Part shown: positions 8,604 to 62,889 of the stretch, in pieces
Layout of the letters: every line of letters begins with the position of its first letter
Position numbering within the stretch: position 1 is the stretch's first letter
NCBI GenBank assembly: GCA_017940465.1
Contig: JAGAYN010000044.1
Location: 3,662 to 67,661, forward strand
From: Bacteroidales bacterium
GTDB taxonomy: Bacteria > Bacteroidota > Bacteroidia > Bacteroidales > P3
Reading direction: 5' to 3'
DNA length: 64,000 nt
The notes under the pieces: generated by a model
Seen by the model: the letters and a program-made list of their open reading frames with translations, nothing else
Databases searched by the model: none
What the model was told of the DNA's origin: nothing
Program-made: the position numbers and the translations under genes

Positions 8604-8878
8604 TTTGCCACGTCGGAAAAAGTTCGCATCTTTGCACTCGCAAAACCGATAGGACGGTTTGCCGAGAAAGTTGCATTATCGCCTTATTCCGATTGTGTGA
8701 ACCTAGACAATTTACACGTCATCCGTAAAGTTAGGAATAGAGGAAATCCGATATGCTCCCATGGATTGATATCCACCTGTGGGGCAATTCAGAATACCTT
8801 TATATTCACTTTACGGGGAAGTCTAGGCCCTCACACAAGAAGATAGAGACTTAATGGATGGCTCCACTTTCTTCGTTG
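8604..8878 (+). ncRNA. Conserved promoter + structured 5' leader element, copy A
   Basis: TTTG (8604-8607), 19 nt, CATCTTTG (8627-8634). Blockwise alignment to 58608-58893 and 61079-61365. Ends in AATGGATGGCTCCACTTTCTTCGTTG, 72 nt before the ATG at 8950. Confidence 0.6.
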
Positions 8879-8949
8879 TATTAATTCACTCGCCGAAGAG
8901 CCTGTTGGCAAACTAACAGTTGCGCACGACACGTACCAGTGACACATTT

Positions 8950-9951
8950 ATGACCCAAACACACAAACTCCTCACCCTGGCCCTCGCCGCCACCCTCGCC
9001 TTCGCAGCCTGCGACAAAGACGATAACTCGGGTAAACAAATTGAATGGATGGAGGATTATTACTACAGTTCCTCTAGTCGCTCTACCGATGGGCGTTTTC
9101 ACCGAACCAGATTCTCTTGGGAGGGAGGACAGCTTAGGCGGCTGGAGTATTTCGACGCCGACAATCAGCGGGTTATATACTACATCGAAATAGTCTACGA
9201 GGACGGCAAGGCGAAAGAGGTGCGCGGGTACGATGAGTCCGGGAAAGCATGGGAGTCTGCCACCCTCTCTGCCACCCTCTTCTACACGGATGACAAAATA
9301 ACGAGCATCCAGTCTTCTTCCTATGCCGTCACGTACGAATACAACTCCGCCGGCGAGCTGGTCAAAGTAACCGGGTCGGATGGCTCCACCACCACCTTCC
9401 TCTGGGAGAACGGCAACATTGTTGAAGAGCGCCATGAAGACAGAATCACGACCTATACCTACGACAACAAGACAAACCCATACCATTCGGCATGCATCGT
9501 TGCATACCTTGGTGAACCAGGCGCTCGAATGCTTTCCCGAAACAACATCGTCAGCGAAACCTACACAAGCGGAGACTACGAAAGCCGCGATGAGTATTCA
9601 TATACCTACGACGGCGACTACCCCACCACAGTAACATCCAACACCTCCGACGGAAAAGATGTTACCTACTTCCGCTATACCGACGGCAGCGGCATGTCCG
9701 CCCCGGACATGTGCCACATCAAAATCGAGGACGGATACGAAGACCATGAGAGTAGACCCTACTACGTATATGGCGTCGGCACCTATGCCAAAGGCGACAA
9801 GGTTATCATTAGCACAGATGCGGACTACTTCCACGACGACACCTTCTACATCTTCTCCCACTGGAGCGACGGCAACACCGACAACCCCCGCACCTTCACT
9901 GCCACCGCCGACGTCACCCTCCGGCCCGTCTACACAGCCGCCGAGTATTAA
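8950..9951 (+). CDS. Lipoprotein with YD/RHS-like beta repeats
   Basis: ATG 8950 gives MTQTHKLLTLALAATLAFAAC (lipobox). Repeat-like segments include YEYNSAGELVKV and YTYDNKTNPY. Paralog of 58974..59747 (shared FSWE block and repeat pattern). Confidence 0.8.
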   Translation: MTQTHKLLTLALAATLAFAACDKDDNSGKQIEWMEDYYYSSSSRSTDGRFHRTRFSWEGGQLRRLEYFDADNQRVIYYIEIVYEDGKAKEVRGYDESGKAWESATLSATLFYTDDKITSIQSSSYAVTYEYNSAGELVKVTGSDGSTTTFLWENGNIVEERHEDRITTYTYDNKTNPYHSACIVAYLGEPGARMLSRNNIVSETYTSGDYESRDEYSYTYDGDYPTTVTSNTSDGKDVTYFRYTDGSGMSAPDMCHIKIEDGYEDHESRPYYVYGVGTYAKGDKVIISTDADYFHDDTFYIFSHWSDGNTDNPRTFTATADVTLRPVYTAAEY

Positions 9952-57370: not shown

Positions 57371-57441
57371 GGTCGTTTGGCCGAGGGGCTAGGCACAGGT
57401 CTGCAAAACCTGCTACTCCGGTTCAAATCCGGAAGCGACCT
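57371..57441 (+). tRNA. tRNA-Cys (GCA)
   Basis: Hand-folded cloverleaf: acceptor GGTCGTT/AGCGACC, anticodon arm CAGGT-CTGCAAA-ACCTG (anticodon GCA), T arm TCCGG-TTCAAAT-CCGGA, discriminator U. CCA is not encoded. Confidence 0.9.
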
Positions 57442-57498: not shown

Positions 57499-58500
57499 TC
57501 AGTCGGCAAGCGCCGCCTCGATGGCCATCCCGTAGAGTTCCGCCGGGCTGATGCCCATCGCCCGCGCCTGCTTGGGGACGATGCTTTCGGCGCTCTGGCC
57601 GGGTATCGTGTTCACCTCCAGGAAGTAGAGTTCCTTGGCGCCGGTGTCGTAGATGTAGTCGAAGCGCACGATGCCGCGGCAACCCAGCAGGTCGTACAGC
57701 CTTGCCGACACCTCCTGTATGTGCTTCGACACCTCCTCTTCCACCTCGGCAGGCGTCACCTCGTTGCTGAATCCCTCATACTTGGCCTCATAGTCGAAAA
57801 ACTCGTGCCCGCCGAGGGGGATGATCTCGGTGATGGGGAACACCAGTTTCTCGCGACCAGTGAAGAACACTCCGCAGTCGAATTCGCGCCCCGTGATGCA
57901 CTCCTCCACCATCACCTGCCGGTCCTCGCCGAAGGCCGTGCGCACGGCCGCAAGCAGTTCCTCCGGCCGCTTCACCTTGGTGGTGGCCACGCTGCTGCCA
58001 CCGGCGGCGGGCTTCACGAATAGGGGGTAGCGCAGGGAGGCCGTCATGTCGGCAAGTTTCTGTGCCTCAGGCTCCTCGTAGAGCAGCACCGACCGGGCCA
58101 CCTTCACCAGCCCTGTGGCAGCCACCACGGGGTTGCAGTAGCCCTTGTGGAAAGTCAGACTGGAGGTGTAAAAGCCACAGGTAGTGTATTTTATACCAAG
58201 CATGTCGAAGTAGCCCTGCAGCACGCCGTTCTCGCCCGGGTTTCCGTGGATGATGATGAAAGCCAGGTCGAAACGCACTTGGCGTCCGTCGATGGTGATG
58301 CTGAAGTCGTTCCTGTCCACCGGCAGTTTCGCGCCGTCGGGCGCGAGGCCGTACCACTCCGCGCGCGTGATTACTATCTTATACACGTTGTATCGCCCGT
58401 GGTCCAACTGTTCAAACACCTGGTTTCCACTGGCTATCGAGATGTCAAACTCGCCGCTGTACCCCCCCATCACGAGGGCTATGTTCTTCTTCGTCATCAT
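57499..58500 (-). CDS. ddl: D-alanine--D-alanine ligase
   Basis: MMTKKNIALVMGGYSGEFDISIASG and an ATP-grasp body (LFVKPAAGGSSV, EVNTIPG). Confidence 0.92.
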   Translation of the reverse strand: MMTKKNIALVMGGYSGEFDISIASGNQVFEQLDHGRYNVYKIVITRAEWYGLAPDGAKLPVDRNDFSITIDGRQVRFDLAFIIIHGNPGENGVLQGYFDMLGIKYTTCGFYTSSLTFHKGYCNPVVAATGLVKVARSVLLYEEPEAQKLADMTASLRYPLFVKPAAGGSSVATTKVKRPEELLAAVRTAFGEDRQVMVEECITGREFDCGVFFTGREKLVFPITEIIPLGGHEFFDYEAKYEGFSNEVTPAEVEEEVSKHIQEVSARLYDLLGCRGIVRFDYIYDTGAKELYFLEVNTIPGQSAESIVPKQARAMGISPAELYGMAIEAALAD

Positions 58501-58607
58501 GTTGGTTTTTGCCCTTGTAACGCACACCCCCGCCTGTTTATTGCCTACCGATATATGTTTTCATGCGTAGAATGACAGCTCACGGATCGCGGCAGCCAAA
58601 ATATTTT

Positions 58608-58893
58608 TTTGCCGTATGAGAAAAAGTTTGTACTTTTGCACCCGCAAACCGCCGAGACATGGTTTGCCGAGAAAGTTGCATTTTTCGCCTTATTCCGAGT
58701 TTGTGAACTTGGCCGTTCATCAATAATGATATGTAGGAATAATAGGGAAGATGAATGCTCCTGTTTGGAATGTATGCACATGAGATACATCCAGTGTGGA
58801 GCGAATCATTAAACCATTATTTTATATCATTGGGAGGCCAAGCCCACACAAACAAAATAGTGCCAAGAATGGATGGCTCCACTTTCTTCGTTG
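58608..58893 (+). ncRNA. Conserved promoter + structured 5' leader element, copy B
   Basis: TTTG (58608-58611), 19 nt, TACTTTTG (58631-58638). Conserved blocks and helices are described in the findings. Ends 80 nt before the ATG at 58974. Confidence 0.6.
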
Positions 58894-58973
58894 CGTAAAA
58901 CTATCCCTCCCGTGCCGTGGGGAACAACTCAACAGCGACGGGCCGATGCTTTATAACCGGCTACAAAAAACCA

Positions 58974-59747
58974 ATGAAAGTAATACGATTATTACTGGCA
59001 ACAACGCTCCTGGCACTCGGAGCAACCCTGACCTCCTGCTCCAACGACGACGACAAAGCCGGCATGGGAAAGGCCCTGACCAGGCTCACTCTCGAAGATG
59101 AAGACGGCTACTACCAATCCCTCCACTTTTCCTGGGAGGACAACAAGGTAAGCTTCATTCAAGTTTGGGAATCAAATCGTTATGGAAACATGCTTCTTTC
59201 TGCCGAACTGACGCCAGAATACCGCAACGGCAAACTGGAATCCTGCTATGCCTACAGTGCAGAAGACCGCTCCGGCATCACCCTGCAAGGCAACTACACT
59301 GGCAATCAACTCACTCAAGTACAGATTCCTCGCGAGGACCCCGCACTGCTCAGCTACGACACCGAAGGCAACCTCCGCTCCATTAACATCAACCACGACC
59401 AGCTCTCCTTCTCGTGGAGCGGCGGACGCATTACACAAATCATCGACCCTGATGGGCGTTCTGTTTCCGTGACGTGCGACGACAAACGCAACCCGCTGAA
59501 CGATGTCATCCGCTGCATCATAGGCTCTTGGAGCGCCACAATGGGCAATATCACACGCCTGGTAAACTACCGTGGCGAAACCGTCGACCTCCAGTACACC
59601 TTCGACGGCGACTACCCCTCGCAGTGCCGTGTCATTGTGGATGGGAAAGTAGGCGGCATCCTATATTACGAGTACGCAGACGGCAGCGGTTCGGCTCCGG
59701 CCAACCTTCCCGCCAACTACAGCAAGAAAAGCTGGCGCATCTTCTAA
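58974..59747 (+). CDS. Lipoprotein with YD/RHS-like beta repeats (paralog of 8950..9951)
   Basis: ATG 58974 gives MKVIRLLLATTLLALGATLTSC (lipobox). Contains HFSWEDNKVSF, YDTEGNLRSI and FSWSGGRITQIIDPDGRS. Confidence 0.8.
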   Translation: MKVIRLLLATTLLALGATLTSCSNDDDKAGMGKALTRLTLEDEDGYYQSLHFSWEDNKVSFIQVWESNRYGNMLLSAELTPEYRNGKLESCYAYSAEDRSGITLQGNYTGNQLTQVQIPREDPALLSYDTEGNLRSININHDQLSFSWSGGRITQIIDPDGRSVSVTCDDKRNPLNDVIRCIIGSWSATMGNITRLVNYRGETVDLQYTFDGDYPSQCRVIVDGKVGGILYYEYADGSGSAPANLPANYSKKSWRIF

Positions 59748-59774
59748 ACCTATCCGGCGCAGGCTGGAACGACA

Positions 59775-59809
59775 GGGACACCTATGCCTTGCAGAGGTGT
59801 CCCTTTTTT
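59775..59809 (+). terminator. Rho-independent terminator of the 58974 gene
   Basis: GGGACACCT / AGGTGTCCC stem followed by TTTTTT. Confidence 0.75.
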
Positions 59810-59950
59810 GCATCCCTGCCATCCTCCCGGAGCACTCCTGGAGGGTAAGGAGAGGGGAAGAAGAGGGTGCCTCTTACATACTGAAAAACAGCCTGTTGCA
59901 AAACTGCAACTTAGGGCTGTTTTTCGGTTTTTTTTCGGAAAATCTGCAAA
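59806..59950 (+). repeat. Conserved 3' element, copy B
   Basis: TTTGCATCCC...CCGGAGCACTCCTGGAGG, then GAGGGGAAGAAGAGGGTGCCTCTTACATACTGAAAAACA, then a hairpin at 59889-59919 with a T-run at 59920-59936. Confidence 0.6.
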
Positions 59951-59969
59951 GGATTGCGGGGGTGTGTCG

Positions 59970-60863
59970 CTAATGCAGCGGGATGTGGCGCAACTGCTTC
60001 ATCTTCTTTGCGTTGAGGTGTGCCTGCTGGATGGTGGCGGGTGTCATGGCGGATTGCTGGAAGCGGTCGTAGACGATGTCCTCGGCCAGCGGCGAGGGGT
60101 GCGAGAGGTCGGGGCCGTAGAAGCGGTAGTCGCGCAGCTCGTCCAGCACAATTTCGTAGGCGGGGAAGTAGGAAATCGGAATTTGTAAGCTGAAAATCGA
60201 GAGCAGCTCCTCCACGGCCATCAGCAGGGTGGCCTTGCTGAGCTGGTTGCCGTGGGCACCGTCGGCCAGGTGGCGTATGGGGCTGACGGTGAAGATGATG
60301 TCGAGTCCGGGATTGAACTCCCTGAGTTTCACCAGCAGGGGTTTCCAAAGGGCGACGATTTCCCCCACCGGCATCCGCCGCCGCTCGAACATCGCCGCCG
60401 GCAGTTTGTGGCAGTTGGCCACCACCATCCGGGCGCCTTCGCCTTTCAGCCGGGGGATGAGGCCGTAGACCCATGCCGTGCCGAAGGTCACCATCAGCAC
60501 CCGTGCCGTATGCAATGCCTTGTGGGATTGGTGGATGCGGCTGTTGCATACCTCAAGCGTCTCCTCTGCCGTGGGGCGGGAGAAGGAGCCGTGGTGGTGC
60601 CACGAATGCCAAAGGCCCTCGTGCTGCACCAGGTCCCTGTCCGTGATTTCCCTGTCCTCCACCATGCGCTCCAGCGCCGCCGCCACCGACGCGGGATTGT
60701 ACAGCGTCCCGAACGGGTTCCGCTCCACACGGAATCCCCCCTCCTCCATCCTCCGCCCGATGGCATCGGCAAAGCACGAACCCATCGTCACCACCCCGTC
60801 CTCCATACTGATTTTCAACGGCATCGGCGACACCTCCACCGTGGTATAAAGCTGCATCTTCAT
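59970..60863 (-). CDS. GSCFA family protein
   Basis: Contains the GSCFA motif (VVTMGSCFADAIG). The start is probably at 60863 (MKMQLYTTV); the ORF is open to 60884. Confidence 0.8.
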   Translation of the reverse strand: MKMQLYTTVEVSPMPLKISMEDGVVTMGSCFADAIGRRMEEGGFRVERNPFGTLYNPASVAAALERMVEDREITDRDLVQHEGLWHSWHHHGSFSRPTAEETLEVCNSRIHQSHKALHTARVLMVTFGTAWVYGLIPRLKGEGARMVVANCHKLPAAMFERRRMPVGEIVALWKPLLVKLREFNPGLDIIFTVSPIRHLADGAHGNQLSKATLLMAVEELLSIFSLQIPISYFPAYEIVLDELRDYRFYGPDLSHPSPLAEDIVYDRFQQSAMTPATIQQAHLNAKKMKQLRHIPLH

Positions 60864-61078
60864 ATCTACATAGTTTATCCGCATAACGCTATATCACAAT
60901 GATTTATTACCCAACTATGTGAAAATAGCCAGTTACATGCCATTGCCACCACTCGTTACATATTATTTCATTCTATACGCATGATTCACAGCAATATAAC
61001 ATTGAACGTGCCAAATCTGGAATTGAATTCCAAATTTAGCCAGTGTGGATAGCCATCCTCCTATTCGCAGAAATATTT

Positions 61079-61365
61079 TTTGTCATATCTGGAAAAGTTT
61101 GTACCTTTGCACTCGCAAACCGCAAGAGTATGGTTTGCCGAGAAAGTTGCATTTTTCGCCTTATTCCTGGCTTGTGAAACTTCGACAACTTCACTAATGA
61201 TATACGGAACAAAGGATAGATTGATGCTCCTGATATGGTATATGTATTTTCCTATGCAATACCTTTGTGGAGCGGTTCATTACACCTTTATTTTATATCA
61301 TAGGGAGTCGAAGCCCTCACAAGCAAGATAGGGTTGCAAATGGAAGGCTCCACTTTCTTCGTTGC
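61079..61365 (+). ncRNA. Conserved promoter + structured 5' leader element, copy C
   Basis: TTTG (61079-61082), 19 nt, TACCTTTG (61102-61109). Ends in AATGGAAGGCTCCACTTTCTTCGTTGC, 72 nt before the ATG at 61438. Confidence 0.6.
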
Positions 61366-61437
61366 AAAATATATCTCAACGTGCCTTGGGAAAAAAAAAC
61401 TGAACCGCCAACAGTATAAAAGAGGCATAGTAACACC

Positions 61438-62889
61438 ATGAAAAAAACACTGTTTTTATGTATGTGCATCATCATGTTTGGGATGTCTGCAACTGCTCAA
61501 TATCAACTAACGCAGAGTATTGAACGCAAACTCCAAGGTAATCAGGAGACACTTAAGACGTTATCCAGCAATGGCGATGCAGAGGCCACGTACATACTAG
61601 GGTATCGAATGAAACTACAACCCTACAGAGACACCCTAAATCAGATGGCAAAAAACAAACAACCTGATGCGATGTTTTTCAAGTGGCTTTCATACCAATA
61701 CGGGAATGCATATCGCAGAAAGAAACCACTACTAAAGAAAACTGCCAAAAGTGGAAACAAATGGGCATGCTACATAATGGGGGAGATAACTCCATACAAA
61801 AAAAAGAAAGCAAAAAAGCAATGGTACATGAAGGCTGCTGAGGATAGTTGTGCAGACGCCTGCGTTGCACTATTAAAGTACTATTTTCCTGAGAATCAAA
61901 AAGACAGCATTTATATAATGATCAACAAAACTCTGGAGTTCTGTAAAGATGATAATGAACTCAAACATTTTGAGTATGAACTCGGCAAGGAACTCTATCA
62001 TTGCCTTCCTAAAGATGAAAAGGAACGAGAAAAGTACACATACATTATGCCTGACATAACTCAATTTCTTACAAATTCGTTTAATAATGGAAACTCTAAT
62101 GCTGCAGGGGAACTAATGAAATGCAATTACGAAAACCAAGACTATGAGCAAAGCATATACTATACATTCCAATACCTAGAGGCGTTCAGCAATCACATCC
62201 AGGTGAAAAGAGAATGTTATCTTAATTTATCCCGATGCTATCTTAAGACTGGAAAACCACAACTGGCAGAATCTTATGGCCTAGCGCGATATGAACTTAA
62301 CCTTAACGAATTTAACAATGGGCACTTACATTATGGATATCAGGCGTCTACCTCTGCAAAATGGATGAGCGAACTATATACTGAACTTGAAAGAGAAGAA
62401 GGGGCGCGATTGTGGTTTGAACGGGCAAAAGAGATTGAAAAACAGGCAAAGAAGTTGGAAAAATTAGCAAAAGAAAAAGAAAGACAGGCCCGATTGGAGC
62501 GTATTGCCAACGCCCTAGACAATGTCAATACAGTCCTGTCGGCAGCCAATGATTTGGCGACCCAAATCAACAATTACAAAGCCCCGTCATCTGCCAGCAC
62601 AACATCAGATTATTCAGGTTCCTCGTCCTCTACCAGCAAAAGCAGTCCCGGGAGAAAACACGACCCATATGCCGCCTCACATGAAGCCAACAAGCAGAAC
62701 GCCGAGAATATCTACCGTCGCTACAGCAACCAACTAATCGACATGAACACCAACTACGAGCGTGATTACAACGACAGCCAGCGCCGACAGATTCAAGCCA
62801 GCATGAAAAAGATACGCACCGAGTGGGAGCAAAAGGGCTATACGTTCTGGCATTCCCCATGGGAGAATTGGGACGGCCATAAACAATAA
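61438..62889 (+). CDS. Secreted Sel1/TPR-like protein with coiled-coil and Ser-rich C-terminal region
   Basis: Signal peptide MKKTLFLCMCIIMFGMSATAQ. Sel1-like units, a KEIEKQAKKLEKLAKEKERQARLE coiled coil and an S-rich tract. Markedly AT-rich compared with its surroundings. Confidence 0.75.
   Translation: MKKTLFLCMCIIMFGMSATAQYQLTQSIERKLQGNQETLKTLSSNGDAEATYILGYRMKLQPYRDTLNQMAKNKQPDAMFFKWLSYQYGNAYRRKKPLLKKTAKSGNKWACYIMGEITPYKKKKAKKQWYMKAAEDSCADACVALLKYYFPENQKDSIYIMINKTLEFCKDDNELKHFEYELGKELYHCLPKDEKEREKYTYIMPDITQFLTNSFNNGNSNAAGELMKCNYENQDYEQSIYYTFQYLEAFSNHIQVKRECYLNLSRCYLKTGKPQLAESYGLARYELNLNEFNNGHLHYGYQASTSAKWMSELYTELEREEGARLWFERAKEIEKQAKKLEKLAKEKERQARLERIANALDNVNTVLSAANDLATQINNYKAPSSASTTSDYSGSSSSTSKSSPGRKHDPYAASHEANKQNAENIYRRYSNQLIDMNTNYERDYNDSQRRQIQASMKKIRTEWEQKGYTFWHSPWENWDGHKQ

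Follow-up and report, generated by a model that had tools for sequence, protein, structure and literature searches.

Three stretches of a 64-kb DNA segment from a Bacteroidales bacterium (contig JAGAYN010000044.1; this whole 64-kb stretch is called the window) carry the same promoter-like motif followed by a long and unevenly conserved sequence, and they raise the question of whether that sequence acts as RNA, as DNA or as a coding region, and what it might do for the gene behind it. The element is very probably a real and new structured RNA family that is read from the + strand. In the best-supported reading each copy is a single transcription unit consisting of a predicted Bacteroidetes housekeeping-type promoter with a putative start site, a structured 5' leader of ~330 nucleotides (nt), and one gene. 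The copies are named A, B, and C, and all lie on the + strand.

8604-8949, + strand: copy A, whole promoter-leader unit, 187 bits against covariance model R1
58608-58973, + strand: copy B, whole promoter-leader unit
61079-61437, + strand: copy C, whole promoter-leader unit, 210 bits against model R1

The repeated unit and its relatives

A preliminary description of copy B had proposed three co-linear stretches on the + strand, and these were recovered at the expected positions, aligning end to end with a mean column identity of 76% including flanks. Even when up to three mismatches are allowed, the + strand carries three occurrences, and no more, of each of the two longest invariant blocks, GGTTTGCCGAGAAAGTTGCAT and AATGGAWGGCTCCACTTTCTTCGTTG; the chance expectation from 100 shuffles is 0. 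Scanning the window with a covariance model built from relatives returned only copies A, B, and C (187-210 bits); the next-best match scores 22 bits and lies on the opposite strand. The start of the element as first described holds, but its end point (58893 / 58973) was set too early for the structured part, because a covarying hairpin (P9) lies beyond it in all three copies and a second small conserved hairpin precedes the ATG in copies A and B. The conserved 3' block ends 71-80 nt ahead of the ATGs at 8950, 58974, and 61438.

The predicted promoters are as follows.

8604-8634, + strand: copy A promoter, TTTG at 8604-07 and -7 box CATCTTTG at 8627-34
58608-58638, + strand: copy B promoter, -33 TTTG at 58608-11, 19-nt spacer, and -7 box TACTTTTG at 58631-38
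61079-61109, + strand: copy C promoter, TTTG at 61079-82 and -7 box at 61102-09

The geometry first reported, TTTG followed by 19 nt and TAnnTTTG, is exact in A, B, and C. Among 96 relatives the -7 box is kept in nearly all, TTTG lies 19-20 nt away in 60, and the promoter region is conserved family-wide, spacer included. The consensus between the -33 and -7 boxes in these relatives reads GCCAnnTnnnAAAAAnTTyG (window positions 58612-58630 and equivalents); such conservation is unusual for a spacer, which could therefore hold a regulator binding site. Promoter function is predicted from the match to the Bacteroides sigma-ABfr consensus. Three contigs, all of dataset Ga0256871 (L052, L058, and L162), start 10-30 nt after the predicted transcription start site, within hairpin P1, and reach the open reading frame (ORF), the pattern that contigs derived from transcripts would be expected to show.

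Relatives were collected by two scans. Genomes, one per species, were searched with an exact 18 nt of the 5' block, and 10 copies (nine full and one truncated) were found in five uncultured rumen Bacteroidales metagenome-assembled genomes (MAGs; RUG134, RUG10805, RUG13023, RUG12733, and RGIG4993); the remaining genome matches to the 5' block are chance occurrences without the rest of the element. Metagenomes were searched with an exact 20 nt of the 3' block, through which all metagenome copies were collected, yielding at least 120 stretches. The working set, composed of the window, the genome copies, and the metagenome matches listed, holds 132 occurrences and 99 distinct full-length copies, with pairwise identities among the latter of 42-100% (mean 61%). 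Covariance model R1, built from 32 diverse copies, scores all 99 distinct copies at 145-245 bits, and all are co-linear with it; its reverse-strand scores are at most 35 bits. Searching the window and 750 kb of related loci with the model revealed no copies beyond those already bearing the 3' block. As far as seen, the family appears to be confined to uncultured rumen Bacteroidales.

The statement that the element belongs to no named RNA class is borne out by Rfam 15, permissive E-values included. With gathering thresholds, its 4227 models match only a tRNA at 57371-57441 in the whole window; at E <= 10, the region 58500-61500 returns two chance miRNA matches, both outside the element; and at E <= 1, seven loci carrying other subtypes give nothing credible on the elements, the sole overlap being C0719, whose 19.5 bits fall short of its threshold of 50. 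No match to the element was found by BLAST against phage and plasmid records or by a pattern scan of IMG/VR. A literature search for the invariant blocks as text produced a single match, due to chance, in a paper on kiwifruit, and literature on rumen or Bacteroidales RNA motifs contained nothing fitting the element.

Copies are at times close together in the same orientation, 850 bp apart in one locus (L065, 13223-14327) and 2.47 kb apart for B and C, and one 258-kb metagenome contig carries three. Such close spacing and multiple copies per contig suggest that a genome holds dozens. The truncated or recombined copy in RUG13023 (L024:3126-3318) retains the promoter, P1, and the 5' block as far as GCATTTTTCG and then continues into unrelated sequence, where a 20-nt direct repeat, TAATGGACAAAATTAATGGT, occurs twice; the locus ends soon after. 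Another metagenome contig (L141:1-40) opens with the Illumina adapter GAGATCTACACTCTTTCCCTACACGACGCTCTTCCGATCT, an assembly artefact in the public record.

Helices of the leader and their covariation

The preliminary description had argued for function at the RNA level rather than through a peptide, and compensatory change across the 99 homologues supports this. In a plain MAFFT alignment made without structural input, a structure drawn by hand in the present analysis pairs 85.5% of cells, compared with at most 52% when partners are slid by 1-3 columns. In the 99-copy model alignment the full helix set pairs 86.5% of cells. Cells changed on both sides number 577; shuffles yield 191 +/- 14 and slid partners no more than 248. 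The covariation score is 0.312, against 0.151 for shuffles and at most 0.110 for slid partners. G-U pairs outnumber A-C mismatches on the + strand (377 versus 148); this asymmetry, together with the low reverse-strand model scores, identifies the + strand as the one that folds. All window copies fold better than shuffled sequences, with minimum free energies of -89 to -92 kcal/mol and z-scores of -3.3 to -4.5 (copy A, -91.6 kcal/mol, z -4.4; copy C, -88.6 kcal/mol, z -4.5). RNAalifold run on the plain MAFFT alignment of the 99 copies recovers few helices because the variable arms are misaligned. A conserved structured domain supported by covariation, the riboswitch property tested for, is thus present in what the promoter consensus predicts to be a 5' untranslated region (UTR).

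Individual helices were also evaluated by an alignment-free duplex test, in which the duplex energy of each copy's own arms is compared with that of arms swapped among copies and expressed as z; unrelated segment pairs used as controls give z of -1.4 and -1.8. The features of copy B are listed here.

58644-58667, + strand: P1, 5'-terminal hairpin GCAAACC / GGTTTGC, supported by covariation
58668-58675, + strand: P2 5' arm CGAGAAAG, pairing with CTTTCTTCG at 58882-58890 with one bulge (closing helix)
58688-58696, + strand: X1 strand CCTTATTCC, whose 3' half (58692-96) pairs with GGAAT at 58736-40 (P3)
58699-58705, + strand: Pa 5' arm GTTTGTG, long-range, pairing with CACAAAC at 58847-58853
58703-58720, + strand: P4, local hairpin GTGAAC / GTTCAT, with the PK 5' arm CTTGGCC (58708-14) in its loop
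58726-58732, + strand: Pb 5' arm ATGATAT, long-range, pairing with ATATCAT at 58824-58830
58750-58810, + strand: P5/P6 arm, in which GCTCC (58757-61) and GGAGC (58798-802) enclose the variable hairpin P6
58766-75 / 58785-93, + strand: P6, duplex test z -10
58815-58822, + strand: X2 strand CATTATTT, pairing with AAATAGTG at 58855-58862 (P7)
58831-58846, + strand: P8, hairpin TGGG / CCCA, with the PK 3' arm GGCCAAG (58836-42) in its loop
58868-58893, + strand: invariant 3' block AATGGATGGCTCCACTTTCTTCGTTG, in which GCTCCAC (58876-82) can pair with GTGGAGC (58796-802)
58905-58922, + strand: P9, hairpin CCCTCCC-GTGCC-GTGGGG, stem duplex z -13.4
58940-58962, + strand: 'beta' hairpin GGGCCG-ATGCTTTATAAC-CGGCT, optional, just ahead of the ATG

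The fold drawn by hand in the preliminary description proves to be only a small part of the structure, most of the signal residing in helices not drawn there (Pa, PK, Pb, P3, P6, P7, and P9). Among the drawn helices, P1, which begins 5-6 nt past the -7 box, is confirmed: each of its seven pairs shows double changes, pairing holds in 96% of cells, and z is -16. Closing helix P2 is compatible with the data (89% paired) but changes on one side only, since its 3' arm is fixed by the search pattern, and its outer extension shows a modest advantage of cognate arms (z -5.7). In the TGGG / CCCA hairpin the GGG / CCC core is invariant, and the outer pair, for which covariation had been claimed, covaries weakly (AU 62, UA 9, GU 4, unpaired 24; z -1.9). 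The helix GTGGAGC / GCTCCAC is paired in 99% of cells without any double change, the 3' arm being invariant and the 5' arm changing only to G-U.

Pa, PK, and Pb lie outside the alignment model and were recovered by an unbiased mutual-information scan and by the duplex test. Pa joins a 5' arm made of variable nucleotides and GUG, just ahead of GUGAA, to a 3' arm made of CAC and variable nucleotides, which comes directly after the GGG...CCC hairpin. Its arms are GCTTGTG / CACAAGC in copy C, TGTGTG / CACACA in copy A, and, among relatives, include CTATGGTG / CACCATAG; z is -33, and pair 92-289, for example, is GC in 26, AU in 22, and UA in 22 copies. Pb also reaches z -33, with double changes in 7/7 pairs and arms GTAAAGT / ACTTTAC in copy A. 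The PK arms are CCTAGAC / GTCTAGG in A, CTTGGCC / GGCCAAG in B, and CTTCGAC / GTCGAAG in C; pairing in the PK core reaches 99.7%, pair 105-276 occurs as GC in 36 copies, CG in 15, and AU in 3, and z is -19.

The local helices covary as well. The proximal part of P3 (UUAUUCC / GGAAUAA) has double changes in 5/5 pairs, is 98% paired, and gives z -8.8. P4 (GUGAA / UUCAC), which shares GUG with Pa, exchanges G-C for A-U in 20 copies, with pair 96-116 being GC in 63, AU in 20, and GU in 14. P7 (AUUU / AAAU) gives z -5.1; pair 247-296 is UA in 46, CG in 20, and UG in 14, and where copy B has T>A, the partner strand shows a matching G>T. P5a is 90% paired, with changes mostly to G-U.

Downstream of the invariant block, P9 lies 10-20 nt after it in 105 of 116 distinct tails, with loop GAGCC in 71, GGGCC in 16, GTGCC in 12 (copies B and C among these), and GAGTC in 4. 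An 'alpha' hairpin, AGUUGCGCCC-GACACGnAUUA-GGG, follows P9 in ~30% of copies, and a 'beta' hairpin, GCCG-AUGGUAUAUAAC-CGGC, is found in ~12%, its stem covarying (GCCG / CGGC, GCTCG / CGAGC) and its loop conserved. The alpha and beta loops are conserved and 11-12 nt long (GACACGnAUUA or AUGGUAUAUAAC), and the AUG within the AUGGUAUAUAAC loop misleads ORF callers into false starts (MVYNRH..., MLYNWH...). The 3' block GGCUCCACUUUCUU (58868-58893, 8853-78, and 61339-64) resembles the 3' tail of Bacteroidetes 16S rRNA (CACCUCCUUUCU), and partners of the block (GAGAAAG, GUGGAGC, and the GAGCC loop) are Shine-Dalgarno-like purine runs; either likeness may be coincidence. The corresponding features of copies A and C are as follows.

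Copy A, + strand: P1 8640-62, P2 8663-70 / 8867-75, Pa 8693-99 / 8832-39, PK 8702-08 / 8821-27
Copy A, + strand: Pb 8725-31 / 8808-14, P8 8815-31, 3' block 8853-78, P9 8892-8909
Copy A, 8918-41, + strand: 'alpha' hairpin, in which CAC / GTG replaces CCC / GGG
Copy C, + strand: P1 61115-38, P2 61139-46 / 61353-61, Pa 61170-76 / 61318-24, PK 61180-86 / 61307-13
Copy C, + strand: Pb 61197-203 / 61295-301, P8 61302-17, 3' block 61339-64, P9 61374-91

Competing pairings, downstream genes, and possible function

Pa, PK, and Pb are nested with one another, with P2, and with P5/P6, and together these make up the long rod predicted as the fold of lowest energy for copies A, B, and C. The local helices P4, P3, and P7 cross or overlap this rod, yet covary: P3 crosses Pa, PK, and Pb, and P3 and P7 covary despite crossing Pa and Pb. 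Column 96 covaries both with 116 (in P4) and with 285 (in Pa), the triplets 96/116/285 being GCC in 35, GCA in 26, and AUU in 15 copies, and P4 and Pa are therefore alternative pairings. In two copies (L077 and L158) each of them forms a perfect helix of 7-8 bp sharing 5-6 nt. The suggestion of mutually exclusive folds was thus correct in kind and holds for P4 versus Pa, but at the place originally proposed the data do not choose between two partners for GUGGAGC: AUGCUCC upstream, paired in 90% of cells with most changes being to G-U, and the invariant GCUCCAC downstream, paired in 99%. An initial model of simple hairpins, P3[P4], P5/P6, and P7[P8], joined by a kissing loop was revised when the mutual-information scan showed that Pa and Pb cross P3 and P7. 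A pure rod model pairing X1 with Y2 and Y1 with X2 is only partly supported (X1:Y2, z +0.7; Y1d:X2d, z -4.8), and the duplex test gave no support for pairing of X1d with Y1d.

Because both incompatible sets covary, the RNA is expected to be a two-state device, to have conserved folding intermediates, or to adopt one compact pseudoknotted fold. The first of these underlies the proposed function, a new cis-acting regulatory leader RNA that would shift between local-hairpin and long-range states on a shared trans-acting signal and act after initiation, for which the chance of being right is about even. The RNA opens with terminal hairpin P1, followed by a core of ~215 nt closed by P2, within which Pa, PK, and Pb connect the 5' third to the 3' third with P5/P6 at the tip; P9, with its conserved GAGCC loop, comes after the invariant 3' block. 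P4 and Pa compete for the same GUG(AA) strand, and the shift between states would respond to a small ligand, protein, or RNA common to all copies. The leader would then influence, in cis, the stability, processing, or translation of the mRNA of the gene behind it, and numerous surface and accessory genes would share a single control. A stronger version, which is put forward only tentatively, casts the leader as the sensing part of a new class resembling riboswitches and responding to a ligand, a protein, or an RNA, bistable and with both conformations selected, and holds that dozens of copies per genome govern the surface proteome and low-GC accessory genes. If that version is true, then type IX secretion system (T9SS) cargo of BspA type and orphan lipoproteins of an abundant uncultured rumen lineage answer one global signal.

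The genes behind the leader bear on these proposals. Of the 132 copies, 124 are followed by a same-strand ORF, which usually starts 45-90 nt beyond the 3' block. The 112 complete downstream ORFs fall into 58 clusters, and ~68% have signal-peptide-like N-termini. The largest cluster comprises 28 ORFs encoding BspA-type leucine-rich-repeat proteins with a T9SS sorting domain; further products include orphan lipoproteins and radical SAM/SPASM, SPFH, zinc-ribbon, and ECF-sigma-like proteins, many having no Pfam match. The leader-borne genes have a guanine-plus-cytosine (GC) content averaging 8.6 points below their upstream flanks, and lower in 45 of 47 loci. In the window their values are 0.54, 0.54, and 0.42, compared with 0.585 for the window and 0.60-0.62 for the neighboring ddl and GSCFA genes. 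The units of promoter, leader, and gene may be cassettes that were acquired or that evolve fast. No recurrent neighboring gene (regulator, integrase, or transposase) was found, the largest upstream family being a housekeeping one at six loci.

8950-9951, + strand: gene behind A, 333-residue lipoprotein, distantly paralogous to that of copy B (26% identity)
58974-59747, + strand: gene behind B, 257-residue lipoprotein, an orphan
61438-62889, + strand: gene behind C, 483-residue protein with a signal peptide and no Pfam match, GC 0.417, unrelated to the A and B genes

The products of the A and B genes both have weak RHS/YD-repeat matches (one for B), and orthologues of the A gene at two other loci (L020 and L047) bear the same leader. 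The copy B protein matches only itself among 5.8 billion proteins, and as an orphan it failed as a route to divergent leaders through homologues. Upstream of copy B lie a divergent D-Ala-D-Ala ligase gene (57499-58527, minus strand) and, ~1.2 kb away, the tRNA gene at 57371-57441 (56.8 bits). GC content ranges from 0.45 to 0.68 among 2-kb windows of the 64-kb stretch, with low-GC stretches at 2-6, 46-48, and 58-64 kb.

Several points weigh against a signal-responsive leader. The promoter and the start site are predictions from a consensus. The invariance of the 3' block arises in part from the collection of metagenome copies through that very block; in the nine copies found via the 5' block it is unchanged or differs by at most 2 nt. 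In a nearest-neighbor model the long-range state is the more stable one for 77 of the 99 copies, with a mean advantage of 7.3 kcal/mol, which suits a static structure. The two helix sets could also reflect a pathway of co-transcriptional folding that evolution has kept, or could both belong to one pseudoknotted fold. Downstream families that are 58 in number and unrelated indicate no ligand. No terminator-like hairpin was found in the leaders, and for no segment of the leader is complementarity to the region of the start codon specific to the copy (absolute z <= 1.6), so that neither classical riboswitch output is visible.

Many of these points are accommodated by the alternative that survives best, a constitutive 5' UTR module with a static fold in which the second helix set only guides co-transcriptional folding. 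Such a module would be a stabilizer or processing site, its 5' hairpin counteracting 5'-end-dependent decay and its long duplex serving as an RNase III-type site or as a shield against Rho loading, and it would amount to a shared 'expression cassette' for low-GC accessory genes. The position of P1 within a few nucleotides of the predicted start, the single nested rod as minimum-energy fold, the lack of a detectable expression platform, and the mutually unrelated low-GC genes downstream are all in keeping with this explanation. An ompA-type stabilizer has its stem-loop a few nucleotides from the mRNA 5' end; P1 covaries and lies close to a 5' end that is itself a prediction. A mere stabilizer, however, seldom requires ~215 nt that include several unpaired blocks without variation (AAUGGAUGG, GCAUUUU, and GGGAGUC), or covariation in two mutually exclusive helix sets, and the explanation is considered rather improbable.

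The RNA might instead be the product itself, a multicopy noncoding RNA, processed or ending before the ORF, that acts in trans or forms a particle while the gene is merely read through. Its own predicted promoter, complex fold, and invariant loops would fit, as would the several copies per genome (three in the window, three on the 258-kb contig), and multicopy small RNA families exist in Bacteroides (FopS, PMC11697453). This alternative is unlikely given that no terminator was found between element and ORF, that orientation and distance to the ORF are fixed, and that the variable helices differ among copies of one genome, which argues against one common target in trans.

A repeat acting at the DNA level, whether a palindrome resembling miniature inverted-repeat transposable elements (MITE) or REP, a site at which mobile gene cassettes recombine, or a promoter region that can invert, is very improbable. 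The core is indeed a long imperfect palindrome, which explains the weak reverse-strand matches of 20-35 bits; the genes behind it are low in GC, often orphans, and singly inserted among housekeeping genes; and the truncated copy L024 is joined to unrelated sequence. Nevertheless, the orientation to the ORF is fixed, divergence over 42-100% identity is compensatory rather than random, the excess of G-U over A-C singles out one strand, no integrase or transposase recurs nearby, and no copy was found in plasmids, phages, or IMG/VR. A MITE/REP-like mobile repeat was rejected on the same-strand ORFs (124/132) at a narrow distance, the mean identity of 61%, and the compensatory changes. A Bacteroidales inverton was rejected because P2, the outermost inverted repeat, begins only after the promoter and because no inversion is seen among the 99 copies, all of them co-linear; an integron attC site was rejected because the element is 5' of the ORF, carries a promoter, and is dispersed among housekeeping genes with no recurrent neighbor. 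A leader peptide or small ORF is extremely improbable: mechanical ORFs do overlap the element (e.g., 61080-61331, 83 residues) but are not common to A, B, and C, the 1-nt indels reported between conserved blocks are real, and the most variable parts (Pa, Pb, and P6) vary as base pairs and not as codons.

Significance and comparison with known systems

Bacteroidota have neither Hfq nor ProQ, largely do without Shine-Dalgarno pairing, and have a poorly understood post-transcriptional control. To our knowledge, no large structured leader common to many unrelated surface-protein genes has been described in this phylum. For the organisms that dominate ruminant fiber degradation, the leader represents a candidate new regulatory signal. 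It marks low-GC and often orphan genes as a putative regulon, which offers a handle on unannotated genes. With ~100 natural variants, clean covariation, and two conserved competing helix sets, it also provides a test case for the evolution of bistable RNA.

Among known systems, riboswitch-type and other structured cis-regulatory leaders such as GEMM (c-di-GMP-I), cobalamin, and T-box share with the element a large conserved 5' UTR fold with covariation, long-range loop-to-loop or pseudoknot pairing, mutually exclusive helices, and several copies per genome. Many genes behind GEMM encode surface or secreted proteins of unknown function, and the same is true of many genes here. Unlike riboswitch leaders, the present element showed no Rfam 15 match, terminator, start sequestration, or ligand-naming gene set.

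The 'ornate' RNAs ROOL, GOLLD, OLE, and raiA have a comparably complex multi-helix fold with pseudoknot-like pairs and were likewise discovered by comparison in uncultured or rumen bacteria, ROOL having first been found in cow rumen (PMC5737381). They are free-standing and mostly single-copy, whereas the element described here is ~300 nt long, multicopy, and always located between a predicted promoter and an ORF.

Within Bacteroidota, FopS RNAs of Bacteroidaceae are ~65-70 nt long and use seed pairing to act in trans on the start sites of susC (PMC11697453). Like the present family, FopS and GibS have paralogous RNA genes, sigma-ABfr-type promoters, and a link to outer-membrane or surface proteins, but identity with them was rejected because size, mode, and sequence differ (PMC11697453). 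The element here is a leader of ~330 nt fused to its own gene and has no sequence similarity to them.

Being multicopy and intergenic, with long hairpins predicted in mRNA, the element also resembles Correia/NEMIS, ERIC, REP, and BOX repeats, some of which carry promoters or RNase III sites. It differs from them in its fixed orientation and distance to the ORF, its compensatory divergence, its invariant unpaired blocks, and the absence of any sign of transposition among the copies seen. In its predicted behavior the element is thus closest to multicopy riboswitch-type leaders and in appearance closest to the 'ornate' RNAs, while being a member of neither group, and it is rated as a probable new family within the structured cis-regulatory leader RNAs.

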